This document shows, in pieces, positions 11,535-46,313 of a stretch of 64,000 bases of DNA. Both the position numbers and the translations under genes were made by a program. Source of the DNA: a virus; the IMG/VR virus record IMGVR_UViG_3300021088_000005, positions 36,811 through 100,810 of that record; one strand, given 5' to 3'. How positions within the stretch are numbered: position 1 is the stretch's first letter; every line of letters begins with the position of its first letter. Below the pieces are notes generated by a model. It saw only the letters and a list, made by a program, of their open reading frames with translations. It searched no databases and was not told where the DNA came from.

Positions 11535-14500
11535 TTATTCCTCTGGAGGCTGCTCTACCGTACCGAAAACGGTTAGGGACAATACCTCGTTCGCAAAATT
11601 TTCCGCAGGGAAGCTTACCTTGACCTGCATGTGTTCCGCTAGAGCAGGAACTCCTGCCGCACGGAAGTAATACGCATTTGAATACAAACTTGTCGGCTGT
11701 TTAGTAGCCCCGTATATCTGCCACGGATACGCCTGAGACTGCGGGAATGTCGTGAATGTTCCGGATATTTCGTTCAACAAGAATCCGACAGTTGGGGTTG
11801 TTCCTACGCGAGTTGCTCGCAGGTTAACGAATGTCAATCCGGCGATCTGCCCTGGGTTTACCAGGTTGATGTTGCCCATCGTGAAACTGCAAGTATATGG
11901 GGTTCCGTCGTCCTCGTAAGTTGAGAAGTCTCTTTGCAAAATATGCTTGTTTGAGCCGATTCCGCCTACAAGTAGTCTGTGAACGCCATTAGAAACTTCG
12001 ATGCTCAACACTGCTCCCGCACCACCTGTAATTGTCGCAAACGGACTCCATACTGCAAGGTTGTTCGGGAATTGGCTCGGATTCAGTCGGTACCAGCCTG
12101 TTACTCCGTCTGATATATAGACAGCATTGTCATTGCCGCTTTCGTGAACGGTGACGAATACTTTGGTTGAATCGAACAATGCGAGCTTGTCCTGGATAGG
12201 ACCGCCCATACGCTGCGCACCACCGCTAGGGTCTAAACTGATAAACTGGTTGTCGGAAGTGTACATGTAAATAACGCCGCCATGAATATCCAGAGCGTTG
12301 TAGTGCAGCAATCCGACTCCTGGAATCATCGGGGTTGGGAAGAACGTAGTGAATACAGGTCCGCCCAATATAGCGTAAACATCTGATGTTAAGAATACCA
12401 AAATGCCTGTTGCTGTCGGCACAATCCTAGTTACCGGACTCGGGAACTCAAAGAAGTCCAACGGGTCGAACGCTTCGTTCGGATTTCCGGTCAATACATC
12501 CGGTCCGCCAGAAGCAAACACGAAGTTTCCTACCGCACCCCAAATTCTCTCGAAGTGATACGCCATAGGCAAGAATCCCGCAGGCGGAGGGTTGTTTTGG
12601 TTGTTGATCGGCGCTTCGATGAACTGGTTTATAACAGAATCCGGCTGCACGTCCTTGACAGTTTGGAACTGTTGAATTCCGCCAATCGGAGGAGTATTTG
12701 GAACTTCGGTCAAGAAGAACAAAGTGCTTCCGCCGTCTAGAGTTCTCCAGATTACGATAGTATCTACCTGAGGGTCAGGTGATCCCGGAATTGTCAACGT
12801 GACCACAGATGTAGGGAACGCAGACGAGAACGTAAACAACGGTGACGCAGTTGACACATGCCCGGTTCCCGACCCTGTCGGAGGTCCTAGAGCACTCGGC
12901 CAGTCTGGGGGAGCAGTCGTATTATAGATATCGTTTGCAGTACGACTCTTGTAGCTATACGCATACGACACACTCTTTGTGATCGAAAATCCTTGAGTCT
13001 GCGCTACTCCAAGATTGAACCAAACTAATCCGTGGGTTGCTATGCCAGAGTGGGTTTCGTTAACTTGGGTTGTGGTTGTGACAACCAATGTTGTTGCGGT
13101 TGAAGCTGTCACCTTTGCTATTACGTTATTTCCGAAGTTCGTGAACCCAGAGAACAAAAATGAGCTACCAGCATAAGCGTTTCCCGCACCGCCAGTTATT
13201 GTTCCGGTATACGTAGTTGACGGTCCGGCAACAGTTACTTGGGTCAGAGCAAAAATACTATCGCTGTCTGCTGTAAGATTTCCAGACGCAGCCCACGTAG
13301 GATGCGCACCTGTCTTACTTTGGCCTGACCTGACCGCAGCTTCGATATTGTTGTTGCTATCGATAATCAGCGCTCCGCCATATGGAACTGCTCCGCTAGG
13401 AGGGAACCATCCGGTAGTCGGCAAATACCATGTCTGATTAGCAGCCCAAGTTAACACTTGTCCTACGCAGGTCCATACTACAGTACCGTCTACAGTGGTC
13501 TGCCCGTATCCTTCTGCCCACGAAATACTTGATGTAGCCGTAGCAGACGAGACTCCGCTAGTGGTGCAAACCTGGAAGTTAGCGTTAGCATCAATGATTA
13601 CAGAGAATACCGTGCCTTGAGCGGTAAACGCCACATACGCAGTGTTTGTCAACCTTGTAGAAGACCCAAGGTTCAACCACGCAAGTTGGTTATCCCCGGT
13701 CACTGTTCCTGTGGTGATCGACCACGGTGGTGAAGTTCCACCTGCTCCGGTTGTCTGTGTTGACCCTGTGAAGTTTACCTGATAGAAAACCGTCTGATTA
13801 CTTGGCAATCCACCAGCTAGACCAACAGGCTCGACTACTGTGTTGGTTCGCGAACCGTCTAGTGTGGGAACAACCATTCCTGGCTTCCACGGCTGCGGAG
13901 TCTTCTGCACGCCAAAGTTAAACCAGATCAGGTTGTTATCTGGGACTGATCCGCCGACTGCTGCGGAGAAGTTCGGACGTGTTGTTCCGCTTGTTCCGGC
14001 GGGGTTAGCCTGCACCTGACAGCAATTTGTGATCGGATCAAATATGATGCAAGGGCTTAATAAAGTTCCACCTGTGGCACTGTTATTGTACGAATGCCCC
14101 GGTTGCCAGAACGTAATCGGGCCGAAGTTCGTCCAGTCCCACCCGTTATCTAGAGTGAATCCGCCGGGAGTCTGATTCCAGTTTGGCTCTCCGTTTCCGC
14201 CCAATCCGAAACGAGTAGAGTTAGGGTTTGTTGCTGGCTGCGCGTTAACTGAAATTAACTGCTCGATGTTTCCGTTAGAATCTAAGATCAGCCCCATCGT
14301 AGAGAATACGGTATCCTGCTGCCACTGCACTGTCGCAGATGCGCTCGGAGTGATTGTAACGACCGGAGCCGTAGGTCCGGCCACTATTCCCCAATTCGAT
14401 ACCTTACCGTTAGCCGGGTTGCAGTCCGCTCCGAGAATGAACTTCTGTAAATCAACTCCGTCTCCGTAATACAGGGTATCTGCTACGCCCTGGTACTGCC

Positions 14501-36445: not shown

Positions 36446-37111
36446 TTAGATAGTTCCTCGACGCTTCATATCTAGTATCAAAGCGATTACTTGTTCTTTT
36501 GAAAGTCCTGGACCTGGGATTCCCTGTTCGCCTTCTGGACCCTGAGGACCTATCGGTCCTTGTGACCCCGACTCACCTTGAGGACCCTGCGGTCCTGCTT
36601 CTCCGCGCAGTCCTTGCTCGCCCTGCGGACCTTGTATGCTCAATCCTGTAGGGCCTTGTAACCCTTGAGGACCCTGCGGTCCTGCTTCGCCTTGAGGTCC
36701 TTGAGCGCCAACTGGTCCTTGAGGTCCTGGAATATCGGAAACTCCTGGCTCTCCCTGCGGACCTTGTAATCCTTGTTCTCCCTGCGGACCTTGATCGCCA
36801 TCGCGACCGTCTTTTCCGTCTACTCCGTCGCGACCGTCGCGACCTGCTGGTCCTGTGTCACCTTTTGGCCCTGGCACTGTGCTGTCTGAGCCGGTCGCTC
36901 CGGTTTCGCCCTTCTCGCCGCGTTCACCGCGAAGACCTTGCGGTCCAGGAATGTTAGAAACCCCCGGCTCACCTTGTAGACCTCGTGGACCTTCAAGACC
37001 TCTTCGAGAGTCTCTGTGTCTGTGCAGGTCATTTACTGCTGTTTCAAGTCTTGAGATTCGTTCGTCTAAAGTTAAATCCACAGTATCATCTCCAAATCCA
37101 TCCGCAGACAC
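36446..37111 (-). CDS. Collagen triple-helix repeat protein
   Basis: About 50 Gly-X-Y triplets (GPQGEQGLQ...) after a short coiled coil. Confidence 0.9.
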
Positions 37112-37190: not shown

Positions 37191-38948
37191 TTATGAGCCA
37201 CTTGCGACTCCGTTGTGATCCAGAATATAAACTACATTGCCGCTGTTAGGAACGACTACGTGAACGATGTCTAGCAATGACGGGTTTGTGAATGCATCAG
37301 CGAACAACTGAGCAATTGTTGCCCCGCTGGTTAGGCGTGTGAAATACTGGCCTAGTCTGACCCCATTCGACGGAGTGAAGGACGCAGCAATGGTGGCGGT
37401 AGCAGCATGAGTTTCTGCTGTCTGCGTGGTCTCGGCTACAACTATGGTTGTGGCCGTGCTTGAGATTACAAGAACACTCGATACATTGTTGCCGCTGCTA
37501 GTGAAACCAGTAACTGTTATGAAACGACCAGCAAGACCGTTGGACGCACCGTTCGTTATGGTTCCGGTATATGTGGCCTTGTTGACTCCGGAGATACGAA
37601 CAGTTGCCGCATGCGTTTCAGCCGCTTGGCCCACTATGAAGGTACCAACCAAGGTTGTTGCTGTTGACGCCGTGATAACAAAGCTTACGTTGTTGCCGGA
37701 TGTTGTAAATCCGGCTACTGTCGCAGTAAAACCTACAAATGCGTTAGAAGCACCGCCTGTGATCGTTCCGGTGTAGGTGGTAAGTGATACCCCGGCTATC
37801 TCGGCAGTCGCAGCGTGAGTTTCGTCAACCTGAGTGTTCGGGGTAACCGTGATGGTTGTCGCAGTTGATGCAGTAATAGTGAATGTGCCGTTATTTCCAC
37901 CGTTCACGAAACCAGCGATTACAACCTGCTTACCAGCAAATGCGTTAGAAGCACCACCAGTAAATGTTCCGGTGTAGACACCTGTTGAACCGACAACAGA
38001 TGTGATTGTGAATGACGAAATAGCAACAGAGGTTAGCGCGAAGTCGTCTACCGCGACAGAAGTTAGCGGAGATGTAAACAAAGAACTGGTTGAGACATTG
38101 TGAACTGTTCCGATATTGTCAACCGAAACCAGGATGTCTCCGCCCTCTCCTACAATCTGAAGCAGGTCTAGGTTCTGTGGGCCAACACCGTTAGGGGTAA
38201 CTTGAGGATACGCAGATGGTACGCTTAAGCCGGGCTGAGACGCAATTAGCGCCTGAGCCACTCCGCCAGCAGTTGTTGGGGTGGCTGCGGAAGCAGGGGC
38301 TGTGATGTTTGTAGCTGTCGCGATAGTAACCGCGCCGCTAGACGTGACCAATCCTGCGAGAGCACGGCCCTTCAGGGTGCCGCCTCCCAATGTGATGCTA
38401 GTGTTGGCAAGAATATTACCAACCATGTTAGAAGTACCAGCAAAGATTGAAGTGAAGGAACTTCCTACTAGCCAAACCACGTTTGCAGCCTTAGCGCCAT
38501 TCACAAGCAATACAGACGCACCACTCTCTAAAGTAAGTGTAGAGCCTGCCTTAAAAATAAAAACAGCATTAGGGTTTCCCTGCGCATCTAGGGTAATAGA
38601 TGTCGGGATGTCCATTGATGATCCAGCGGAGTAATTGCCGGGTAGGTATGTGCTAGCCGTCCCGCCATTTCCTAGAGTAGATAGGTTGGCTGAAGACGCA
38701 GACAAAGATGTGAAGGAAAGTGCGGAGAAAGCGTTATAAGCAGTGAGGCCGTCTGCAATAGCTTGCGCGGCGTTTGGGGTATCAACTGCGGCAGGAGGAA
38801 TAAAGATCATCCCGTCCAAAGTATATGTCGCGGTTGGTGACGACCCGACATTGCCACCTGTGATGATGCTAGAGCCTGAGTTAGTAATACCAGCGCCTGC
38901 TAGAATGACATAATTAGCGGCGGTCAACAACTGAGACTGAATAGACAT
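37191..38948 (-). CDS. DUF3494 ice-binding domain protein with C-terminal repeats
   Basis: TAANYVILAGAGITNSG...ITLDAQGNPNAVFIFKAGSTL...NVVWLVGSS...GRALA, then three YTGTxTxGASN...GF...GNN...ETHAAT modules; SD AGGAG before ATG 38948. Confidence 0.85.
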   Translation of the reverse strand: MSIQSQLLTAANYVILAGAGITNSGSSIITGGNVGSSPTATYTLDGMIFIPPAAVDTPNAAQAIADGLTAYNAFSALSFTSLSASSANLSTLGNGGTASTYLPGNYSAGSSMDIPTSITLDAQGNPNAVFIFKAGSTLTLESGASVLLVNGAKAANVVWLVGSSFTSIFAGTSNMVGNILANTSITLGGGTLKGRALAGLVTSSGAVTIATATNITAPASAATPTTAGGVAQALIASQPGLSVPSAYPQVTPNGVGPQNLDLLQIVGEGGDILVSVDNIGTVHNVSTSSLFTSPLTSVAVDDFALTSVAISSFTITSVVGSTGVYTGTFTGGASNAFAGKQVVIAGFVNGGNNGTFTITASTATTITVTPNTQVDETHAATAEIAGVSLTTYTGTITGGASNAFVGFTATVAGFTTSGNNVSFVITASTATTLVGTFIVGQAAETHAATVRISGVNKATYTGTITNGASNGLAGRFITVTGFTSSGNNVSSVLVISSTATTIVVAETTQTAETHAATATIAASFTPSNGVRLGQYFTRLTSGATIAQLFADAFTNPSLLDIVHVVVPNSGNVVYILDHNGVASGS

Positions 38949-38964
38949 GATGCTCCTGAAATAC

Positions 38965-38993
38965 AAAAGCCGCCCAATCTAGGCGGCTTCTTT
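38965..38993 (-). terminator. Terminator ending the RNA array (possibly bidirectional)
   Basis: AAGCCGCC/GGCGGCTT stem with T tracts on both strands. Confidence 0.7.
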
Positions 38994-39006: not shown

Positions 39007-39085
39007 TGGTCGGGAAGGTGGGATTCGGACCCACGTGCTTTCGCTTCCGAAGCGAACGAGATAAGCCAAACTCCTCTACTTCCCG
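39007..39085 (-). tRNA. tRNA-Pro(CGG)
   Basis: TTCGC-TTCGGAA-GCGAA; CCA encoded; T-loop TCCGAAT. Confidence 0.85.
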
Positions 39086-39091
39086 TAAAAT

Positions 39092-39165
39092 TGGTCGGGG
39101 AACTGAGAATCGGACTCAGACCCTACGCTCCCAAAGCGTATGTGCTGCCATAACACTTCTCCCCG
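39092..39165 (-). tRNA. tRNA-Pro(TGG)
   Basis: TACGC-TTTGGGA-GCGTA; A8/U14; T-loop TCCGATT. Confidence 0.85.
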
Positions 39166-39171
39166 ATAAAA

Positions 39172-39936
39172 CTAAAAGAACGAAATTGTTTCTGCTTTCT
39201 CTGGATTAGCCGCGATGAACTTATCGACTGTATTATCCTGTAAGTCATTCAAGAAATCTAGAACACGGTCCGCCGGAGTCACTATATCGTAAGTACCGGA
39301 ATGGAAATCACCGACTGCAATACCGATTAGCGCACGTTCCTTAGCGCTGTAGATTCCGCTTCCACTAGACCCAGGCGCGATAGTCACGTCCATGGGCATT
39401 GTGTGAATCCAAAACGGATACTGCTCAATTATCTCTAGCGGCATGGCTAGGAATGCGGAAGACATGAATCGACCGTAGAATACCTGCTTGCCTGTGCCGT
39501 ACGGGAACGAAACATCAAATATCGGGTCGCCGGACTTTAATCCGCGTTCGTCTTTGATTCGAACTTCCGGGACGCCAGCGCCGTTCCTGATTAGCATCAA
39601 AGCTACATCGTCTGTCAAACTAATCGCAATAGGCATCGCGTCATAGAACGGTCCGCCCTCGTTATCTGAGAAGCTGACCTTCATGCTCTGATTGACGACA
39701 TTCGTGTCCGGGTCTGCTACGCAATGGCGTGCTGTCAAGAAAACACCGTCACCTGTCGAAGTGTGGCCGATTTCTGTGCCGCTGCAATTGAACCTGCGCT
39801 CAGCGCCTACGAATATGGCTCCGGTTGCTGCCCGAGCATCAATCTCGAACGGGTGCCGTGGTGCTCCACTAATCGCTAAGCCTGAGCCTAGGGCGAGTAG
39901 AACGGCTAAAGAAATCACTGCTAGCAACTTCTTCAT
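39172..39936 (-). CDS. Secreted trypsin-like serine protease
   Basis: Signal peptide; CSG, FLTARHC, DDVAL, APGSSGSG triad motifs. Confidence 0.85.
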   Translation of the reverse strand: MKKLLAVISLAVLLALGSGLAISGAPRHPFEIDARAATGAIFVGAERRFNCSGTEIGHTSTGDGVFLTARHCVADPDTNVVNQSMKVSFSDNEGGPFYDAMPIAISLTDDVALMLIRNGAGVPEVRIKDERGLKSGDPIFDVSFPYGTGKQVFYGRFMSSAFLAMPLEIIEQYPFWIHTMPMDVTIAPGSSGSGIYSAKERALIGIAVGDFHSGTYDIVTPADRVLDFLNDLQDNTVDKFIAANPEKAETISFF

Positions 39937-39961
39937 AGACTACCAACTCATTCGCAATACT

Positions 39962-40018
39962 TGGCGGAGCACTTATGCGAATGCATGCCGTTCGCTTATT
40001 GGAGCGAGCCTCTGCTCG
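39962..40018 (-). ncRNA. CCA-terminated tRNA-like small RNA (about 57 nt)
   Basis: GAGCA/TGCTC stem, two inner hairpins, ends GCCA. Confidence 0.45.
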
Positions 40019-40029
40019 GCTTGTAAAAA

Positions 40030-40104
40030 TGGCTGCGAGACTAGGACTCGAACCTAGATGCGCGGCTTCAGAGACCGCTATCCTACCAATTAGATGATCT
40101 CGCA
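40030..40104 (-). tRNA. tRNA-Gln(CTG)
   Basis: GCGGT-CTCTGAA-GCCGC; U1-A72; CCA. Confidence 0.9.
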
Positions 40105-40112
40105 ATAAATTT

Positions 40113-40176
40113 TGGAGGGTAGCCATTTCGTTCCCGCTAGGGCGAAGGGGTCGTTATCACTAGGGCAGTACTACCC
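40113..40176 (-). ncRNA. CCA-terminated small RNA (64 nt)
   Basis: GGGTAG/CTACCC terminal stem plus TCCA; no cloverleaf. Confidence 0.45.
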
Positions 40177-40222
40177 TGCTGTTGTTCCCTAATTACCTGA
40201 CCAACGATTTCACAGATCGAAC

Positions 40223-40298
40223 TGGTTGCCTCGACACGACTCGAACGTGTATAGCGGGATTCAAAGTCCCGCGTCCTACCAAATTAGACGACAAGGCA
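40223..40298 (-). tRNA. tRNA-Gln(TTG)
   Basis: CGGGA-CTTTGAA-TCCCG; CCA. Confidence 0.9.
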
Positions 40299-40304
40299 AT
40301 AAAA

Positions 40305-40376
40305 TGGAGCGAACTACTTACGGATTCGAACCGTCATCCGGTTGGCCTTCCGGATTACACCCTAGTGCGTGTTCGC
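40305..40376 (-). ncRNA. Atypical tRNA-like RNA (8-nt anticodon loop, 5-nt bulge between T arm and acceptor stem)
   Basis: GCGAAC/GTTCGC-TCCA; ATCCGG-AAGGCCAA-CCGGAT; ACGG-TTCGAAT-CCGT-AAGTA. Confidence 0.6.
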
Positions 40377-40382
40377 ATAAAC

Positions 40383-40459
40383 TGGACCAGCAAGTCAGAC
40401 TCGAACTGACTAAGAACAAGGTTGCAGCTTGTCGCCTCGACCGCTTCGGCATTTGCTGG
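40383..40459 (-). tRNA. tRNA-Cys(GCA)
   Basis: ACAAG-CTGCAAC-CTTGT; U73; CCA. Confidence 0.88.
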
Positions 40460-40460
40460 T

Positions 40461-40494
40461 TGGTCGCGGAACCGCCGTGAAGCTAAGTCCCACG
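40461..40494 (-). ncRNA. 34-nt ACCA-terminated minihelix 1
   Basis: CGTGGGAC-TTAGCTTCACGGCG-GTTCCGCG-ACCA. Confidence 0.55.
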
Positions 40495-40496
40495 AT

Positions 40497-40530
40497 TGGT
40501 GCCCCGCCAGGATTGCTCCGAAGCTAGGGC
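40497..40530 (-). ncRNA. 34-nt ACCA-terminated minihelix 2
   Basis: GCCCT-AGCTTC-GGA-GCAA-TCC-TGGC-GGGGC-ACCA. Confidence 0.55.
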
Positions 40531-40535
40531 ATAAA

Positions 40536-40622
40536 TGGCGGATGATGAAGGAATCGAACCCTCTTCACCTTTCGGTGAGGACAGTTTTCAAGACTGCTGC
40601 CCCCCATGGAGCCCAATCATCC
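40536..40622 (-). tRNA. tRNA-Ser(TGA)
   Basis: GCAGT-CTTGAAA-ACTGT; long variable arm; G73; short D arm. Confidence 0.82.
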
Positions 40623-40629
40623 GTAAAAA

Positions 40630-41145
40630 TTAAGTATGAAACACTGTAATCGGCAACCAAGCAACATGGATATCTACTTCAGTCCCGTTGACTGGTGCGG
40701 AACAAGTTGCGCTAACTCCTAGTCCGAATAGAGAAGACTGAACCGTGCTCCACAAAGACAATGGGTTAATTCCCCATAGATCAGTCGAACTACCAAGAGT
40801 ATAAAACTGTGGCTCGTTAGTTAAAGTAACATGTTTTCCGGTTCCGATTGGGTTGCCGTTCAAAGACATGGCAACATACAACTGACCGCTTCCGCCACCT
40901 GGCGAAGCATAGTACGCCCAGAATCCACCTTCAAGACCTGTTACACTCTGCTGCTCAGCTAATGTAAATCCGTATCGCTGACCGAAGACTGCTACCCCTG
41001 TGTTCTGACTACCGCCACTGAACTCTTTGTTCTGAGCGTAATCGCCTGGGGGCGATCCTACGAGACCACCGATATTAGTCCAGAGTACTTCATTACCGTT
41101 TGCGTACTGTACCGAATAGCCTGCGTATGCGCTTTCACTTGCCAT
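40630..41145 (-). CDS. Beta-rich hypothetical protein inside the RNA array
   Basis: SD GGAGG; YTLGSSTDLWG motif. Confidence 0.65.
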   Translation of the reverse strand: MASESAYAGYSVQYANGNEVLWTNIGGLVGSPPGDYAQNKEFSGGSQNTGVAVFGQRYGFTLAEQQSVTGLEGGFWAYYASPGGGSGQLYVAMSLNGNPIGTGKHVTLTNEPQFYTLGSSTDLWGINPLSLWSTVQSSLFGLGVSATCSAPVNGTEVDIHVAWLPITVFHT

Positions 41146-41174
41146 CTAGCCTCCGGCAATGCTAGTTAAAAATT

Positions 41175-41256
41175 TGGCGGAGAACCCCTTGCTAAGACTC
41201 CATGTCGCGTTTCCGCTGCAAGGTCCGCTGAAGCGTGTACCTGTTTAAGGTTCCCC
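41175..41256 (-). ncRNA. CCA-terminated branched RNA (82 nt) with G3-U70
   Basis: GGGGAACC/GGTTCTCC-GCCA; inner GCG-GAAA-CGC hairpin. Confidence 0.5.
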
Positions 41257-41279
41257 GGTCTTTCGACGGTTCTAATGTT

Positions 41280-41365
41280 TGGCGGAGAAGGAGGGACTTG
41301 AACCCCCACATCCTTTCGGATGCGAGTTTAGCAAACTCGTGCGTCTACCATTTCGCCACTTCTCC
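41280..41365 (-). tRNA. tRNA-Ser(GCT)
   Basis: CGAGT-TTGCTAA-ACTCG; long variable arm; CCA. Confidence 0.92.
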
Positions 41366-41374
41366 GTATTCAAC

Positions 41375-41666
41375 TGGTGACCAATAGCCAGGGTTCTGTC
41401 CAGCGCTTTCACGCTTGAACTGTCATTCGTCTTCGCTTCCAACCCGACCTTCGTCACGCTCAACAAGCGCTCTGGTCCTATTTGGAATTGCACCTACAGA
41501 GAGTCACTTCGCTCGAATGACCTATATGACGGTTGTTAAGTTTCTAATCGACCGCTATATGGGTACGAAGCCTTACTAGTCCGGTTACCCGGCCCGCAAC
41601 TTCCACGGTGTAGTGTTGAGATGTGCCCTGAACTTCCTCGGTTTCCCGCGACAGTTTAGGTCACCA
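41375..41666 (-). ncRNA. rnpB: RNase P RNA (type A-like, no P18, divergent S-domain)
   Basis: CR-I GAGGAAGTTCAGGGCAC and CR-V ACAGAACCCTGGCTA form P4 with bulged U; P1 TGGTGACC/GGTCACCA; P2 ACTGTCG/TGACAGT; P3; P5 GCAC/GTGC; P6 CTCAACA/TGTTGAG; P7 CTACA/TGTAG; P15 TTCC/GGAA; CR-IV AGACGAAT; P19. Confidence 0.9.
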
Positions 41667-41675
41667 AACTAAAAC

Positions 41676-41752
41676 TGGACGACCTGACTGGACTCGAACC
41701 AGCAAACATTTGTTTAGGAAACAAAGCCCCGATCCTTTCGGGGAACAGGTCG
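41676..41752 (-). tRNA. tRNA-Arg(CCT)
   Basis: TTTGT-TTCCTAA-ACAAA; CCA. Confidence 0.85.
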
Positions 41753-41756
41753 AAAC

Positions 41757-41831
41757 TGGAAGGCCGTAACGGAATCCAACCGTTGTCTCCCCGTTAGAAG
41801 CGGGGCGCATTTTGCACTATACTAACAGCCC
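41757..41831 (-). tRNA. tRNA-Arg(TCT)
   Basis: CCCCG-CTTCTAA-CGGGG; C19-G56. Confidence 0.85.
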
Positions 41832-41837
41832 ATAAAT

Positions 41838-41912
41838 TGGCAGGGGAAGAGAGATTCGAACTCCCATAACTGGTTTTGGAGACCAGAGTCCTAGCCGTTG
41901 GACGACTCCCCT
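41838..41912 (-). tRNA. tRNA-Trp(CCA)
   Basis: CTGGT-CTCCAAA-ACCAG; G73. Confidence 0.92.
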
Positions 41913-41917
41913 ATAAA

Positions 41918-42035
41918 CCTTTCCGATGTCACTTTCTCAGATCGCAGGCGCGTGACTGGCCGTGTCACAGTCCTTTGGGCTCGCGTGATCTGCTACGTTA
42001 GGCGATCATCGGTGCTAGTTTTCAAGGCTAGCAGG
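41918..42035 (-). ncRNA. Unknown structured RNA between tRNAs
   Basis: GCTAG/CTAGC, CCGATG/CATCGG, CAGATC/GATCTG, GTGAC/GTCAC stems. Confidence 0.45.
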
Positions 42036-42039
42036 AACT

Positions 42040-42113
42040 TGGAGCGACTGACGTGACTCGGACACGTTTCTCTGGATTGGAAGTCCAGGGCACAACCTAT
42101 ATACCACAGTCGC
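42040..42113 (-). tRNA. tRNA-Gly(TCC)
   Basis: CTGGA-CTTCCAA-TCCAG; U73; T-loop TCCGAGT. Confidence 0.88.
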
Positions 42114-42119
42114 AAAACT

Positions 42120-42194
42120 TGGAGCGGCTGACGGGAAATCGAACCCGTACCTGAACCTTGGCAAGGTTCCGTACTACCACTATACTACAGCCGC
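42120..42194 (-). tRNA. tRNA-Gly(GCC)
   Basis: GAACC-TTGCCAA-GGTTC; 8-nt T-loop. Confidence 0.9.
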
Positions 42195-42195
42195 A

Positions 42196-42271
42196 TGGTC
42201 GCTGTGGCTGGATTCGAACCAGCTATACCCGCCTTATGAGAGCGGTGCTTTTCCGGTTAAGCTACACAGCG
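42196..42271 (-). tRNA. tRNA(CAT), elongator Met or Ile2
   Basis: CCGCT-CTCATAA-GGCGG; paired 1-72. Confidence 0.85.
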
Positions 42272-42277
42272 TAAAAT

Positions 42278-42350
42278 TGGTTGCAGGGGTAGGAGTCGAA
42301 CCTACGTAAGCAAGTTTATGAGGCTTGCCTGAATCCCATTCTCCTCTGCA
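42278..42350 (-). tRNA. tRNA(CAT), possibly initiator-like, reduced D arm
   Basis: CTCATAA loop; TGCAG/CTGCA-ACCA; D arm GAAT-GGG-ATTC. Confidence 0.7.
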
Positions 42351-42358
42351 CAGAAATT

Positions 42359-42442
42359 TGGTGCGCGATGAGGGATTTGAACCCCCACGAGTTTCCCCAA
42401 TAGTTTCTAAGACTATCGTGTCTGCCGTTCCACCAATCGCGC
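42359..42442 (-). tRNA. tRNA-Leu(TAG)
   Basis: ATAGT-CTTAGAA-ACTAT; long variable arm. Confidence 0.92.
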
Positions 42443-42448
42443 AAAACT

Positions 42449-42524
42449 TGGTAGGGATGGAGAGATTCAAACTCTCGTCACTTGGCTTGAAGGGCCAGTA
42501 TCATTATCGCTAGACCACATCCCC
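42449..42524 (-). tRNA. tRNA-Glu(TTC)
   Basis: TGGC-CCTTCAA-GCCA; C33; A19-U56. Confidence 0.8.
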
Positions 42525-42530
42525 AAAACT

Positions 42531-42604
42531 TGGTCGCGCTGCGGGGAATCGGACCCCGGTTACACGGATGAGAACCGTGTGGCTTGCCACTAACCGACAA
42601 CGCG
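42531..42604 (-). tRNA. tRNA-Glu(CTC)
   Basis: CACGG-TTCTCAT-CCGTG; T-loop TCCGATT. Confidence 0.85.
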
Positions 42605-42605
42605 A

Positions 42606-42680
42606 TGGCGGAGATACCGGGGATCGGACCCGGACTTTACCCGTGACAGGGGTACGTCGTTACCAACTGACCCTATCTCC
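42606..42680 (-). tRNA. tRNA-Asp(GTC)
   Basis: TACCC-CTGTCAC-GGGTA; G73; T-loop TCCGATC. Confidence 0.85.
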
Positions 42681-42681
42681 G

Positions 42682-42755
42682 TGGAGCACCATAAAGGAAT
42701 CTAACCTTTTCTTCCGCTTTACCAAAGCGGTGGACTAACAATATCCTAATAGTGC
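42682..42755 (-). tRNA. tRNA-Thr(GGT)
   Basis: CCGCT-TTGGTAA-AGCGG; U19-A56. Confidence 0.85.
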
Positions 42756-42760
42756 GAAAC

Positions 42761-42834
42761 TGGAGCAGCGTCTGAGAATCGGACTCAGGCCAGCGGTTTA
42801 CGAAACCGCGATCATACCACTAGACCAACGCTGC
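42761..42834 (-). tRNA. tRNA-Thr(CGT)
   Basis: GCGGT-TTCGTAA-ACCGC; T-loop TCCGATT. Confidence 0.87.
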
Positions 42835-42839
42835 AAAAC

Positions 42840-42914
42840 TGGAGCACAATCGAGGAATCCAACCTCGGCTTCCGAGGTACAAGCTCGGCGTCATAGGCGC
42901 TAGACCAATCGTGC
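42840..42914 (-). tRNA. tRNA-Thr(TGT)
   Basis: CCGAG-CTTGTAC-CTCGG; C19-G56. Confidence 0.85.
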
Positions 42915-42920
42915 TTACAA

Positions 42921-43009
42921 AGGCTGGGGCAGCAGGATTCGAACCTGCAATGTGCTTACGCACTGTCTGGGTAACGGCCAGATGCTGTACCGGATTGAGC
43001 CACACCCCA
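42921..43009 (-). tRNA. tRNA-Asn(GTT) with long variable arm
   Basis: TCTGG-CCGTTAC-CCAGA; GTGC-GTAA-GCAC variable hairpin; G73; ends CCT. Confidence 0.78.
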
Positions 43010-43489
43010 ATAAAGTCTATCTTCTTCCTCTGCGTGGCAGTTAGCGCAGAGTAAATCACACTTATCTAATTCTAATTCTAATTTTACTTTTTCCCAGGCT
43101 ACAGTTTCTGGGCGCGATATAGCAAATTCTTTTTCTCCAGGTTCTCTATGATGAAATTGTAGTGCTCTTACACACTTACAGTACCCGCACTTCATGCACT
43201 TCCTGCCGAGATATTCAACAGCTCTCTGCTTTATATCTCTACGCCAGTCCATGACTCTTTTACTTACCGCTTTTCTCTTACGGTTAGCGGACTGTTCTTT
43301 CTTTATATTTCTGCACTCATCACTACAATAACTTAATACTGTCCGAATTGCCTTACCGCAAATCTTACAAGACCCTTCTGGTTTCCTCTTAGGAAAACGA
43401 TTGATATTGTTGTTCGCAGAATTGGCACACGTCTTAGAACAATATTTAGGATTGTCTGTGAGTACACCACATCCGTTACATGGGTGCAT
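42956..43489 (-). CDS. HNH endonuclease with Zn-finger repeats, 3' end overlaps tRNA-Asn
   Basis: CMKCGY...ALQFHH...KCDLLCANCHAEE. Confidence 0.88.
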   Translation of the reverse strand: MHPCNGCGVLTDNPKYCSKTCANSANNNINRFPKRKPEGSCKICGKAIRTVLSYCSDECRNIKKEQSANRKRKAVSKRVMDWRRDIKQRAVEYLGRKCMKCGYCKCVRALQFHHREPGEKEFAISRPETVAWEKVKLELELDKCDLLCANCHAEEEDRLYWGVAQSGTASGRYPDSA

Positions 43490-43522
43490 TCTAGTCTCCT
43501 AGTTTTAACTTCTAAACAAAAA

Positions 43523-43598
43523 TGGAGACCCTGGAGAGATTCCAACTCCCGACGCCCACGTTCGAAGCGTGGCGCTCTGTGCGCTGAGCTACAGGGTC
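43523..43598 (-). tRNA. tRNA-Arg(TCG)
   Basis: CCACG-CTTCGAA-CGTGG; C19-G56; A20. Confidence 0.87.
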
Positions 43599-43608
43599 AA
43601 ACTAATCA

Positions 43609-43764
43609 TCAGCGAGGAAACCTACGAATCAACTCCAACTGATGTGTTTCATCTTGGTACCAAACATGAGTGTCCATGTACTTCTTAGAATACCAAAGCA
43701 TAATAGGTAACGGGACCAACCAATAAATCCAAGGTCTCCATGACCAATATATTTTACTCTTCAT
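43609..43764 (-). CDS. Small Trp-rich membrane peptide
   Basis: MKSKIYWSWRPWIYWLVPLPIMLWY; ATG 3 nt after a tRNA CCA, no SD. Confidence 0.4.
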   Translation of the reverse strand: MKSKIYWSWRPWIYWLVPLPIMLWYSKKYMDTHVWYQDETHQLELIRRFPR

Positions 43765-43767
43765 ATC

Positions 43768-43843
43768 TGGTGATCCTATGTGGACTCGAACCACAGCATC
43801 GAGCTTCGCAGGCTCGCACTCTTTCCATCTGAGTTATAGGACC
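43768..43843 (-). tRNA. tRNA-Arg(GCG)
   Basis: CGAGC-CTGCGAA-GCTCG; A20. Confidence 0.88.
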
Positions 43844-43912
43844 ATAAACTTTTAGGGTTACGATCCCTCAACGGCTGCTTATTTCCGGTCTACAGCAAGA
43901 CGATCATTAAAC

Positions 43913-43987
43913 TGGTACGCCGCCGAGGAGTTGAACCTCGCTCTTCCGGGTGTAAACCGGGTGCATCTGCCGATCTGCCAGCAGCGT
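43913..43987 (-). tRNA. tRNA-Val(TAC)
   Basis: CCGG-TTTACAC-CCGG; A73. Confidence 0.85.
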
Positions 43988-43988
43988 A

Positions 43989-44052
43989 TGGTGGAGTCGG
44001 TGTGCCACGGTATCCCGGAAGGTTCTACCTTCTGTAGGTCTTGCCGTGCTCC
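43989..44052 (-). ncRNA. CCA-terminated small RNA (64 nt)
   Basis: GGAG/CTCC-ACCA, CACGG/CCGTG, GAAGGT/ACCTTC. Confidence 0.45.
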
Positions 44053-44138
44053 ATAATGTCCGGCGCGGATTGCATGTTGCTCCGCGTCGTCCGATGTGTC
44101 AGATAGTTCGTTGTATACTATCTCACACATCGTAAAAT

Positions 44139-44212
44139 TGGTGTAGGCGAAGGGAATCGAACCCTCAAATTCTCGGTGCAAGCGAGACAGTTTCCCGTTA
44201 GCTTACGCCCAC
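44139..44212 (-). tRNA. tRNA-Ala(TGC)
   Basis: TCTCG-CTTGCAC-CGAGA; G3-U70; A73. Confidence 0.9.
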
Positions 44213-44219
44213 ATAAAAT

Positions 44220-44293
44220 TGGTAGTCGGCCAGTGACTCGAACACTGATCTCACGTTAATCGGACGCGGGTCCTACCTTTGAACGAGCCGACT
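44220..44293 (-). tRNA. tRNA-Ile(GAT)
   Basis: CGCGT-CCGATTA-ACGTG; unusual C33 and U37. Confidence 0.78.
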
Positions 44294-44411
44294 ATAAACT
44301 TTACCGCTACACTTCTTCATATGAAACCAAAGAGCATCAGCCGGATTTATCTTGGCTGTTATCTCTTGCCCACATTTACTGCATCGAAGTACGCGTAGCT
44401 TTGACATAAAC

Positions 44412-44500
44412 TGGTGGAGAAGGAGTGAATCGAACACTCTACGTCTCAAGGACGGTTGGTTTTACAGACCAATGCGACTCTCCAACTTCGCCGCTTCTCC
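44412..44500 (-). tRNA. tRNA-Tyr(GTA)
   Basis: TTGGT-CTGTAAA-ACCAA; long variable arm. Confidence 0.9.
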
Positions 44501-44506
44501 AAAACT

Positions 44507-44582
44507 TGGTGGGACATGACGGGCTCGAACCGTCAACCGACTCCTTAAAAGGGAGCTATGTTGCCACTAACACCTATGTCCC
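44507..44582 (-). tRNA. tRNA-Lys(TTT)
   Basis: GCTCC-CTTTTAA-GGAGT; A8/U14. Confidence 0.88.
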
Positions 44583-44588
44583 GAAACT

Positions 44589-44663
44589 TGGTGCGCCTCC
44601 CGTGAATTAAACACGGTCCCGACGGGTTAAGAGCCCGCTGTGCTATCGTAACACCTGAAGCGC
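44589..44663 (-). tRNA. tRNA-Lys(CTT)
   Basis: GCGGG-CTCTTAA-CCCGT; A8/U14; A19-U56. Confidence 0.85.
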
Positions 44664-44673
44664 AAAACTTAAT

Positions 44674-44770
44674 AACCTGTGGAGGAATCGAACCTCTACT
44701 GACATTAGCGCGTAGACGTTATCGGTCAGCAAGCACCCGAGGTATCTACGTACCCGCCGTGCTCACGGTC
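44674..44770 (-). ncRNA. tRNA-shaped RNA with kissing loops, no CCA
   Basis: T arm GAGG-TTCGATT-CCTC; loops CGTAGA and TCTACG complementary. Confidence 0.55.
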
Positions 44771-44771
44771 T

Positions 44772-44858
44772 TGGTGCGCTGCCCCGGATTTGAACCGGGA
44801 CGGGGTTTAGTCCAGCGGGTTTTAAGTCCGCTATGTCTGCCTGTTCCATCAGCAGCGC
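44772..44858 (-). tRNA. tRNA-Leu(TAA)
   Basis: GCGG-ACTTAAAAC-CCGC; long variable arm. Confidence 0.9.
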
Positions 44859-44867
44859 AAAATCATA

Positions 44868-44936
44868 GATGGCGTCCTATCCGTTAGACGATACACGCCG
44901 ATAGCATGCACCGGGACTCGAACCCGGATTTCCACC
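44868..44936 (-). ncRNA. Circularly permuted, anticodon-less tRNA (YrlA Y-RNA-like)
   Basis: Order: GGTGG, AAAT, T arm, TGCATGC, TATCG loop, GCGTGTA, D arm, CCATC. Confidence 0.8.
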
Positions 44937-44941
44937 TTACT

Positions 44942-45035
44942 TGGTAGTCTCGAAGAGATTCGAACTCTTATCGCGCCCCAATCTAGGGCTTATCCAGTTT
45001 ATAAGGCTGGCGCTCTGCCGTTGAGCTACGAGACT
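44942..45035 (-). tRNA. tRNA-Ile(TAT) with long variable arm
   Basis: CCAG-CCTTATAAA-CTGG; GCCCT-AGATT-GGGGC variable hairpin; A73. Confidence 0.82.
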
Positions 45036-45041
45036 AAAATC

Positions 45042-45136
45042 TTGAACCTTCCCGAGCTTTACTAGCGTGACACTCGGTCTTGATTAACAAGTCGTGCCTT
45101 CCACGCTAGCGGTTGCACGATCAATGAACGGTTCAA
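45042..45136 (-). ncRNA. Unknown multi-stem RNA with 8-bp kissing loops
   Basis: TTGAACC/GGTTCAA; TCGTGC/GCACGA; CCGAG/CTCGG; loops CTAGCGTG/CACGCTAG. Confidence 0.6.
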
Positions 45137-45142
45137 ACTTGA

Positions 45143-45229
45143 TTCGGGACCCGGCATCAACCTTCCCAGGAAGTGCCACGTCGGTTAGAAGCTTGACACT
45201 TACTACCAACGTCGTCAAGGTTTCCCGAA
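45143..45229 (-). ncRNA. Unknown pseudoknotted RNA
   Basis: TTCGGGA/TCCCGAA; CTTGAC/GTCAAG; ACGTTGGT/ACCGACGT; GGCA/TGCC; CTTCC/GGAAG. Confidence 0.55.
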
Positions 45230-45232
45230 AAC

Positions 45233-45317
45233 TGGTGCGACAGAGGGGAGTTGAACCCCTATGAGACAAGCTCGGCGGTTTTTGAGACCGCTGCGTATGC
45301 CATTCCGCCACTATCGC
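45233..45317 (-). tRNA. tRNA-Leu(CAA)
   Basis: GCGGT-CTCAAAA-ACCGC; long variable arm. Confidence 0.92.
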
Positions 45318-45385
45318 ATAATCTTTAGGGCTCTTAGCCCAAGGTAAGACTTCATCCATGTAGGAGAAGCTTTCTTACCTAAACT

Positions 45386-45460
45386 TGGTCCGGACTCACG
45401 GAATTGAACCGCGTACGCCCACCTCTTCAGGGTGGCGCTCTACCGATGAGCTAAGCCCGG
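45386..45460 (-). tRNA. tRNA-Phe(GAA)
   Basis: CCACC-CTGAAGA-GGTGG. Confidence 0.9.
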
Positions 45461-45468
45461 ATAAAATA

Positions 45469-45639
45469 GTATTCATCGTGACAAACGTCTTAAGCCGGAT
45501 GCCTTCGTCACAACGGGTGACCAGCCATATAGAGTTCACGCCCCACCGGGGAATGACTCTAGTCTAAGCAAACTCACCAGATTGGCCTGCGCAAGCCTTA
45601 GCATCTCTCCGGCAAGAAGCAAGTCTCGATTACAAATAC
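45469..45639 (-). ncRNA. 6S RNA-like rod (about 170 nt)
   Basis: End-to-end hairpin ATCG/CGAT, GAC/GTC, TCTT/AAGA, GCCGGA/TCCGGC, central bubble, GGTGA/TCACC, TAGAGT/ACTCTA, CCCC/GGGG. Confidence 0.5.
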
Positions 45640-45668
45640 ATTGTACCACAACTTTCGAATCTTGTCAA
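45640..45668 (-). promoter_or_regulatory. Sigma70-type promoter for the RNA array
   Basis: TTGACA-17 nt-TACAAT with extended TG. Confidence 0.85.
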
Positions 45669-45987
45669 GCGATTTCTTCGACCATCTCAAGAAATATTTC
45701 CATCGCTTCGATCATTCTGCTGCGCCCAAACTCGTCAGCCAGGACATAAACCTCAGCGTCGGACATCTTGCTTGTTATGACTACGCCGTCTTCCAGGGAT
45801 GTCCACACCATCGGTTCCTCCACCCGCCTGGGGGTTGGACCCGGCGGACAGAATCTAATCCAGTGGCGGAGAAAGGATCGTAACCGCTACGCCGGACGCT
45901 CTTATGAGCACACTGGAAACTTTGGGTGGCTGATTGCGCTCTGACAGCCGAAGTTTCAGCGTATGTTTCAGCGTATGTTTCTAATTT

Positions 45988-46063
45988 TGGGGTGTCCCGC
46001 CGGAATCGGACCGAGCGCTACAGGATTCACAGTCCCGTGTGCTTCCATTACACCACGGACACC
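45988..46063 (-). tRNA. tRNA-His(GTG)
   Basis: CGGGA-CTGTGAA-TCCTG; G-1:C73; T-loop TCCGATT. Confidence 0.85.
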
Positions 46064-46077
46064 ATCGATCTAGATAC

Positions 46078-46106
46078 ATTCTATCACAACTTCTAAAATC
46101 TGTCAA
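46078..46106 (-). promoter_or_regulatory. Sigma70-type promoter at the start of the RNA array
   Basis: TTGACA-17 nt-TAGAAT with extended TG; shares GAA(A)GTTGTG spacer sequence with the 45640 promoter. Confidence 0.85.
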
Positions 46107-46113
46107 GCTTTAT

Positions 46114-46293
46114 TTACAGCTTTGCTTTGACTGCTGCAACTAGTGCCTTTACTTCGGCTACTGTAGATGCTTCGACCTTGGCTAGCTCTGCGCGAACTGC
46201 GGCAAGCTTGCCTGCGTTCTTAACTCTTCCGCCTGCAAAACCCAATGCCAAACTAACAATGACTGTAATCGCAACGTAAGCCAAGTGTACCAT
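46114..46293 (-). CDS. Small membrane-anchored protein (59 aa)
   Basis: Manual translation MVHLAYVAITVIVSLALGFAGG...; SD GGAG. Confidence 0.55.
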   Translation of the reverse strand: MVHLAYVAITVIVSLALGFAGGRVKNAGKLAAVRAELAKVEASTVAEVKALVAAVKAKL

Positions 46294-46313
46294 AATCGGG
46301 TCTCCGTGTCAAG

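Follow-up and report, generated by a model that had tools for sequence, protein, structure and literature searches.

The right-hand 64 kb of the 100,810-bp viral record IMGVR_UViG_3300021088_000005 from IMG/VR (64,000 nucleotides, record positions 36,811 to 100,810, hereafter called the window) contain an array of tRNA genes that encloses a gene for a reduced RNase P RNA of class A. The block with this array occupies positions 39007-46106 of the window, and the RNase P RNA is encoded at 41370-41667 (298 nt); all features of this block lie on the minus strand. The block is likely, with a probability of roughly 0.7, to be a translation-support RNA operon of an uncultured soil phage with a genome of about 100 kb, whose RNase P ribozyme would be functional and would use the RnpA protein of the host. 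RNase P RNA is considered a housekeeping ribozyme of cells, and no description of a phage-encoded RNase P RNA was found in the literature searched.

Genes for a large terminase and a portal protein, together with the IMG/VR record, identify the source of the window as a phage. The completeness of the record is 95% according to CheckV, and the phage DNA was detected in soil metagenomes. The closest cultured relative is Tunturiibacter phage Tunturi_3, a soil phage with an acidobacterium host. Its terminase has a sequence identity of 25%, and it has no RNase P RNA. A megablast search of the tRNA block against 50,697 GenBank phages gave zero matches.

Structure of the phage RNase P RNA

The RNase P RNA, which a preliminary description of this DNA had reported from the sequence, is a full-length match to the Rfam family RF00010 (model positions 1-367, 72.7 bits, E 4.6e-21). 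The phage RNA resembles the bacterial class-A RNase P RNA, such as the M1 RNA of Escherichia coli encoded by rnpB, in possessing helices P1-P12 and P15-P17 and the P4 and P6 pseudoknots. The bulged U of P4, J18/2, and the GGU of L15, which binds the 3'-CCA of tRNA in the bacterial type, are retained. Helices P13, P14, and P18 are absent, P3 is short, and about 30 nt are missing from the specificity domain. Reduced class-A RNase P RNAs without P13, P14, and P18 have been described for bacteria of the Candidate Phyla Radiation (PMC8172020). Unlike the bacterial RNA, the phage RNA carries the signature GAGGAAGUUC...GUGGAAGYUGC, which was common to the first three copies and differs from the bacterial consensus. 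Furthermore, its J11/12 is about 2 nt long, and a conserved UCAUUCGAG replaces the canonical junctions. The UUCGA pentamer inside UCAUUCGAG may be T-loop-like.

Phage RNase P RNAs range in length from 260 to 339 nt. In an alignment of 25 sequences, 20 of which are distinct, RNAalifold detects compensatory changes in 28 of 41 predicted pairs, and helices P7-P12 are present and covary. The P4 pseudoknot, formed by CR-I and CR-V, has all eight pairs in each of the 20 distinct sequences. Two of the P4 pairs run through all four Watson-Crick types, and U106 is unpaired, as is the bulged U of bacteria. Helix P6 (CUCAACA with UGUUGAG) covaries on visual inspection, and the CGGGU of L15 is invariant (25 of 25 sequences). 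By sequence comparison, the gene for the RNase P RNA is real and is maintained by selection.

Contigs assembled from soil RNA libraries are identical to positions 41422-41647, 41426-41647, and 41355-41627 (three of four libraries, from separate studies), and one contig of the ribozyme core has the highest depth of any exact piece. Other parts of the block are not covered by contigs from these libraries. Another soil RNA-library contig (run X11 record 3) matches both flanks of P12 and has 84 other letters between them (window 41484-41572). Judged from these flanks, the contig represents a ribozyme variant of the same habitat in which the P12 hairpin is a different one.

Distribution and gene context of the ribozyme

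Two of 50 phages that are related through a neighbouring GP88-family gene contain a match to RF00010. A search with the signature pattern identified 24 IMG/VR contigs besides the window, and the 22 new ones are all full-length RF00010 matches. The scores of the relatives are 66-132 bits, with seven of the 24 exceeding 100. Contigs that have terminal repeats and are rated complete belong to the ribozyme-bearing set. The ribozyme is located inside the array, on the strand of the tRNAs, in all 25 contigs, and the next tRNA is at most 16 nt away in 12 of them. The phage RNA differs from the bacterial one in its position within a tRNA array, in the lack of an accompanying rnpA gene, and in that most of its members score below the Rfam threshold. 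In the window, the ribozyme begins 8 nt behind tRNA-Arg(CCU), with tRNA-Ser(GCU) 4 nt beyond its end, so that tRNA processing would release it.

The same pattern has four matches in 185,579 species genomes. Two of them, L154 and L156, are chance sites in high-GC coding DNA without RF00010 signal. The other two are contigs of one metagenome-assembled genome labelled "uncultured archaeon LFW-28", L155 (CABMCB010000059.1) and L157 (CABMCB010000038.1), which contain phage-like tRNA arrays with RNase P RNA. One of these contigs is 99.9 kb long and syntenic with the window, and both are probably mis-binned phage DNA. As far as these searches reach, the ribozyme variant is a phage lineage, and the cellular genomes among those searched are without it.

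A near-complete set of tRNA genes

ARAGORN identifies 32 tRNAs between positions 39007 and 46062, every one of them on the minus strand. Rfam and a relaxed ARAGORN search add Glu-UUC (42449-42524) and Lys-CUU (44589-44663). A weak but conserved CAU tRNA (42278-42350, 26 bits) has counterparts in relatives that ARAGORN assigns to tRNA-Met. The resulting total agrees with the 35 tRNAs for all 20 amino acids given in the preliminary description. The set has 34 distinct anticodons, 34 of its members score above the ARAGORN/Rfam (RF00005) threshold, and CCA is encoded by 34 of the 35. With wobble included, almost all sense codons can be decoded by these tRNAs. The operon opens with tRNA-His(GUG) (45988-46062), which also heads arrays in relatives, and the main array of 34 further tRNA genes spans 39007-45460. 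Most units are separated by linkers of 5-8 nt of the form (A)(A/G)UUU(U/A), which resemble an RNase E site with a U-rich RNase P leader behind it.

The large arrays of T4/T5-type phages and mycobacteriophages likewise consist of closely packed tRNA genes on one strand, with HNH endonuclease genes among them (PMC10264068, PMC11555353). The roles proposed for phage tRNA arrays are codon supply and escape from tRNA-cleaving defences (PMC10264068, PMC11555353). Unlike the known arrays, that of the window combines a near-complete decoding set with an RNase P RNA, altered elbow pairs in 17% of the tRNAs, and tRNA-Asn and tRNA-Ile with additional variable arms. The array of the related phage G036 (L084; 47 tRNAs and an RNase P RNA) also includes a tmRNA gene and a tRNA with the amber-reading anticodon CUA (L084 4842-5194 and 9531-9602). 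ARAGORN further reports a 102-nt tRNA-Arg(tct) at 12450-12551 of the window, inside an open reading frame (ORF) of 1118 aa far from the array. It is probably a false positive, and Rfam is silent at this position.

Boundaries of the probable operon

The two near-consensus promoters noted previously were found at exactly the positions given for them. Promoter P1 (46078-46106, TTGACA-17-TAGAAT) is positioned upstream of tRNA-His, and promoter P2 (45640-45668, TTGACA-17-TACAAT) precedes the main array. Both contain the TG of an extended -10 element and agree with the sigma-70 consensus in 11 of 12 positions. The P1 region is 88% conserved in the relative G001, and blastn matches of the block to G001 and G036 are limited to the tRNAs and P1. 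A third promoter (46284-46312, TTGACA-17-TACACT with TG, 10/12) is located 5' of a 59-aa ORF, immediately before P1.

At the other end of the block, an intrinsic terminator at 38960-38989 (minus strand) consists of a GC hairpin followed by UUUUGUAUUU, in agreement with the terminator noted previously (38965). It is absent from the output of the pattern scan that gave the promoters. The block looks like a single RNA operon, as had been suggested. However, about 1.9 kb of it are protein genes, for an HNH endonuclease, a protease, and an orphan protein, which the preliminary description omitted.

Proposed maturation of the operon transcript

In the proposed mechanism, transcription by the sigma-70 RNA polymerase of the host would begin at P1 and P2 and yield one long precursor running through the 35 tRNAs. 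The ribozyme would be freed when its two flanking tRNAs are processed, and would then pair with the RnpA protein of the host. RnpA (PF00825) has no match in the phage genome, and the host protein is assumed to be the partner because the phage encodes none. A CCA-adding enzyme, RtcB, and a TilS-type gene were also not found in the phage genome. The holoenzyme would remove the 5' leaders from the phage pre-tRNAs, and also from the CCA-ended tRNA-like helices dispersed among them. As an outcome, RNase P capacity may be secured or enlarged during the burst of tRNA synthesis. It is a reasonable reading that the phage supplies its own, putative, maturase. The remaining content of the operon would be passengers: mobile HNH genes, the protease gene, and orphan ORFs set between CCA ends and the 5' ends of tRNAs, as well as a rapidly changing set of small stem-closed RNAs, a few of which are conserved structured RNAs without an assigned role.

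Several observations weigh against this explanation. The score of 72.7 bits is below the Rfam gathering score of 100 for RF00010. The proximal pairs of P4 are GAGGAAGUUC instead of the bacterial GAGGAAAGUCC, which changes two pairs to G-C and U.G. Because of the loss of P13 and P14 and the very short junctions in the specificity domain, the recognition of substrates may differ. No match to RF00010 was obtained in related phages with 24-37 tRNAs, and the ribozyme is therefore not required for a large array. Compatibility with the RnpA of the host is assumed, and catalysis and transcript ends are predicted from sequence. The contigs from soil RNA libraries provide a weak hint of a stable RNA; they may include DNA carry-over and do not show its ends.

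CCA-ended elements and protein genes

Six non-tRNA elements of the block clearly end in NCCA (44053-43989, 41257-41175, 40530-40497, 40495-40461, 40376-40305, and 40208-40113). The preliminary description counted seven; beyond the six, three more are only marginal. Two tandem hairpins of about 34 nt each (40461-40530), with ends ACCA and CCA, are positioned between tRNA-Ser(UGA) and tRNA-Cys. The syntenic gap of the relative G070 likewise contains two CCA-ended hairpins, without sequence similarity to those of the window. A 72-nt cloverleaf (40305-40376) has a UCCA end, an anticodon loop of 8 nt, and a D loop of 4 nt; it is not called as a tRNA and is unique to the window phage. An 83-nt stem-closed RNA with a CCA end (41175-41257) is located 29 nt upstream of ORF171 and is not conserved.

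Two tRNA-Gln genes are separated by a three-way-junction RNA (40113-40208), the 3' tail of which pairs with the P3 loop and ends in UCCA. Its 20 pairs are 92.5% paired, as compared to 38-55% in slid controls, and 10 of them show compensatory changes. A covariance model finds this RNA in seven phages, all from this clade. The pseudoknot tail is present in three of the seven members, where the strands differ in sequence, all pair, and have an NCCA end.

The tRNA-like structures of plant RNA viruses are pseudoknotted, and minihelices of the tRNA acceptor are known. The tRNA-Gln spacer RNA (40208-40113) resembles the former in forming a helix of 7 bp beside the NCCA through a loop-to-tail pseudoknot, and the hairpins at 40530-40461 resemble the latter as helix-NCCA units of minihelix size. 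Unlike these precedents, the elements of the window are encoded in phage DNA, internal to an operon, and no more than putative substrates of RNase P cleavage, CCA repair, and aminoacylation, and the pseudoknot tail is limited to the three members.

The claimed permuted tRNA corresponds to a tRNA-like module at 44937-44867, in which the 3' strand of the anticodon stem is followed by the T arm, a loop-closed acceptor stem, the D arm, and the 5' strand of the anticodon stem. The same circularly permuted architecture recurs in L103 (G064) and L057. A permuted tRNA gene with a circularised product able to decode was rejected, since the acceptor stem is closed by a loop and there is neither CCA nor an anticodon loop. 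According to its modelled fold, the module is a tRNA mimic. The bacterial Y RNA YrlA (RF02553) has the same order of T arm, closed acceptor-like stem, and D arm, and its ends are likewise equivalent to the anticodon stem. In contrast to YrlA, the window module has only 71 nt and lacks the long Ro60-binding stem. RF02553 has no match at 44867-44937, and its lone match (18.8 bits, 42247-42306) overlaps two tRNAs. No TROVE/Ro60 gene was found in the phage genome. The weak Rfam matches in the block (mir-BART15, Plastid-ycf2, YrlA at 42247-42306, and others) overlap tRNAs and are attributed to chance.

Iterative nhmmer searches found no counterparts of the permuted module, the modules at 45229-45042, the minihelices, the cloverleaf with the 8-nt loop, or the spacers that precede ORF171, ORF48, and the protease gene. 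In a set of 195 spacers, a helix precedes CCA more often than any other trinucleotide (22.9% vs. 14.4% on average). The excess is modest and includes tRNAs missed by the caller.

The HNH homing-endonuclease gene (42956-43489) has its stop codon in the variable-arm loop of tRNA-Asn, and HNH genes are scattered through the arrays of nearly all relatives. The orphan ORF171 (40630-41145) is preceded by a GGAGG ribosome-binding site; searches among 5.8 billion proteins and in IMG/VR gave no homologue. The third larger gene encodes a secreted trypsin-like protease (39172-39936), homologues of which, with identities of about 22-25%, are found in the tRNA-array loci of five relatives. A possible ORF of 48 aa (45665-45811) also has a GGAGG ribosome-binding site but is not conserved. 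The small ORFs in spacers (48, 51, and 44 aa) have no tblastn counterparts in relatives and are considered possible genes only. The 44-aa ORF, a possible zinc ribbon (from 44407), extends into tRNA-Ile(GAU) (44273-44293). Just downstream of the operon, a gene at 37191-38966 encodes a 591-aa protein that has an ice-binding-like domain (PF11999), and one at 36446-37111 encodes a protein of 221 aa with collagen repeats. Both products are likely virion surface or fibre proteins.

The CCA-ended helices and stem-closed spacers might serve as processing punctuation, which would provide cut sites for RNase P and RNase E, release mRNAs, and protect 3' ends. This explanation is unlikely, although it is compatible with the translation-support operon. 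It agrees with the positions of the three larger ORFs, which start 25-33 nt after a CCA end (41175 to the ATG at 41145; 39962 to the ATG at 39936; tRNA-Arg at 43523 to the ATG at 43489) and terminate in the next tRNA or no more than 7 nt away from it, and with the AGUUU-type linkers that flank every unit. However, the elements at 40530-40461, 40376-40305, and 40208-40113 adjoin no ORF, and both elements that are adjacent to ORFs are unconserved.

Altered elbows and variable arms of the tRNAs

The elbow pair G19-C56 is near-universal in tRNAs. It is replaced by another Watson-Crick pair in six window tRNAs (17%). The replacements are C19-G56 in Arg-UCU, Thr-UGU, and Arg-UCG, U19-A56 in Thr-GGU, and A19-U56 in Glu-UUC and Lys-CUU. 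Among about 690 tRNA calls from 23 arrays, the covariation of positions 19 and 56 is near perfect: a matching D-loop base, without GG, accompanies G56 in 11 of 11, A56 in five of five, and U56 in 13 of 15 cases. Elbow swaps were found in 27 of 658 tRNAs (4.1%) of ribozyme-bearing phages and in two of 113 (1.8%) of their ribozyme-free relatives (Fisher p = 0.29). The closest relative, G070, as well as G001 and G036, have the ribozyme and zero swaps. Since the swaps do not track the presence of the ribozyme, the idea that the RNase P RNA is a maturase matching the re-wired tRNAs is unsupported.

tRNA-Asn(GUU) and tRNA-Ile(UAU) belong to class I as a rule. In the window, tRNA-Asn(GUU) (42922-43009) contains an extra hairpin in the variable region, together with C33 and a CCU 3' end. 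The stem of this arm covaries in seven phages, and its loop is a GNRA. The extra variable-region hairpin of tRNA-Ile(UAU) (44942-45035) is present in 13 of 16 phages, with a covarying stem and a conserved YAGAUUR loop. The nematode nev-tRNA-Ile(UAU) (PMC3333845) likewise carries the class-I anticodon UAU on a tRNA with a long variable arm. In contrast to the nematode molecule, the phage tRNA-Ile(UAU) shares its acceptor-end pairs (AGUC...GACU-A) with the phage tRNA-Ile(GAU), which suggests Ile identity rather than Leu mischarging. Counterparts of the variable-arm tRNA-Asn and tRNA-Ile occur in L137, L138, L155, and others; L155 has both an ordinary and a variable-arm tRNA-Asn. Some relatives contain Met, Pro, and Cys tRNAs of 88-89 nt.

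U55 is a universal base of the tRNA T loop. It is replaced by C55 (T loop UCCGA) in seven window tRNAs, for example within 39007-39165, 42531-42680, and 45988-46062. C55 was found in 46 of 658 tRNAs of ribozyme-bearing phages and in none of 113 from ribozyme-free relatives, a skew that may come from shared ancestry.

In the system put forward by the preliminary description, the re-wired tRNAs resist host enzymes, the RNase P RNA is matched to them, and the CCA-ended and permuted RNAs are putative decoys for defence effectors or synthetases. Such a system is improbable. The six compensatory swaps, the pairing of the non-C56 classes across the arrays, the covarying variable-arm insertions, the tandem minihelix architecture that recurs at the G070 locus, and the frequency of helices before CCA can be explained by it, and tRNAs of phages are known to act against defences that cleave tRNA (PMC10264068, PMC11555353). 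However, the frequencies of swaps with and without the ribozyme do not differ significantly, and three ribozyme-bearing phages lack swaps. Moreover, most of the CCA-ended elements are unique to the window phage, the CCA enrichment is modest, and both the effector and the binding are putative. A self-processing operon is similarly doubtful. In such an operon, the ribozyme would excise the tRNAs as well as the changing CCA minihelices, the pseudoknotted tRNA-like RNA, and the permuted mimics. The latter three would act as sponges for host readers of the acceptor end or elbow (e.g., defence toxins that modify or cut CCA), which the swapped-elbow and variable-arm tRNAs would escape.

Leader RNA and conserved spacer RNAs

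The leader RNA behind P2 (45474-45625) consists of two covarying hairpins around a variable middle. It was found by nhmmer in seven distinct phages, and 15 of its 29 pairs show compensatory changes. The preliminary description interpreted it as a 6S-like rod. Similar to 6S RNA (RF00013), the leader has about 170 nt, directly follows a strong promoter, and can fold end to end in the window copy. In contrast to 6S RNA, it has neither a conserved closing stem nor a central bubble. RF00013 gives no match at E up to 10, and the consensus of the seven homologues contains two local hairpins without conserved end-to-end pairing. The assignment as 6S RNA was therefore abandoned in favour of a conserved two-hairpin leader. 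A loop-loop pairing GAYGCU/GGCRUC within the leader is hypothetical; it has one covarying position and clashes with predicted local pairs.

A 41-nt hairpin (41947-41987) is nearly invariant in sequence in the window and four other distinct phages. A tRNA-shaped RNA (44676-44768), which lacks CCA and has enlarged arms apart from a canonical T arm, is conserved in G070. The strongly structured spacer at 43989-44132 (z = -6.1) keeps its 5' hairpin region in three other phages, and its 3' hairpin ends in ACCA. By comparison among the phages, at least four spacer RNAs are conserved, two of them with clear covariation. Conservation and covariation of the odd elements, on which the preliminary description had made its system depend, were thus observed for some of them, whereas for about half of them no counterpart was detected, not even in the nearest syntenic relative.

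The conservation of the ribozyme and the spacer RNAs bears on two further explanations. It is very unlikely that the RNase P RNA is mainly a competitor that captures host RnpA or pre-tRNAs and starves host tRNA maturation. The lack of a phage-encoded protein subunit and the reduced specificity domain would suit such a role, but the catalytic core (bulged U of P4, P6, J18/2, and GGU of L15) is conserved and covaries in 25 copies, and a sponge needs none of it. It is hardly credible that the block is a common tRNA cluster in which the spacers have decayed and a captured piece of host rnpB is inert: relatives lack counterparts of about half of the spacer elements, the HNH endonucleases littering the arrays could produce debris, and the window tRNA-Asn has C33 and a CCU end, but the ribozyme is full length, covarying, phage-specific, and always in arrays, which largely refutes this explanation for the ribozyme, and at least four spacer RNAs are conserved, two clearly covarying.

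Implications

With a conserved, phage-specific lineage of RNase P RNA inside tRNA arrays, some phages would supply not only tRNAs but also a catalytic RNA for their maturation. The lineage would also be a source of natural minimal ribozymes, in which P4 is altered and the specificity domain is stripped down. The arrays, with their swapped elbows, hairpin insertions in class-I tRNAs, and unnamed conserved small RNAs, may provide a compact natural test bed for readers of the tRNA elbow and acceptor end, both in cells and in anti-phage defence.

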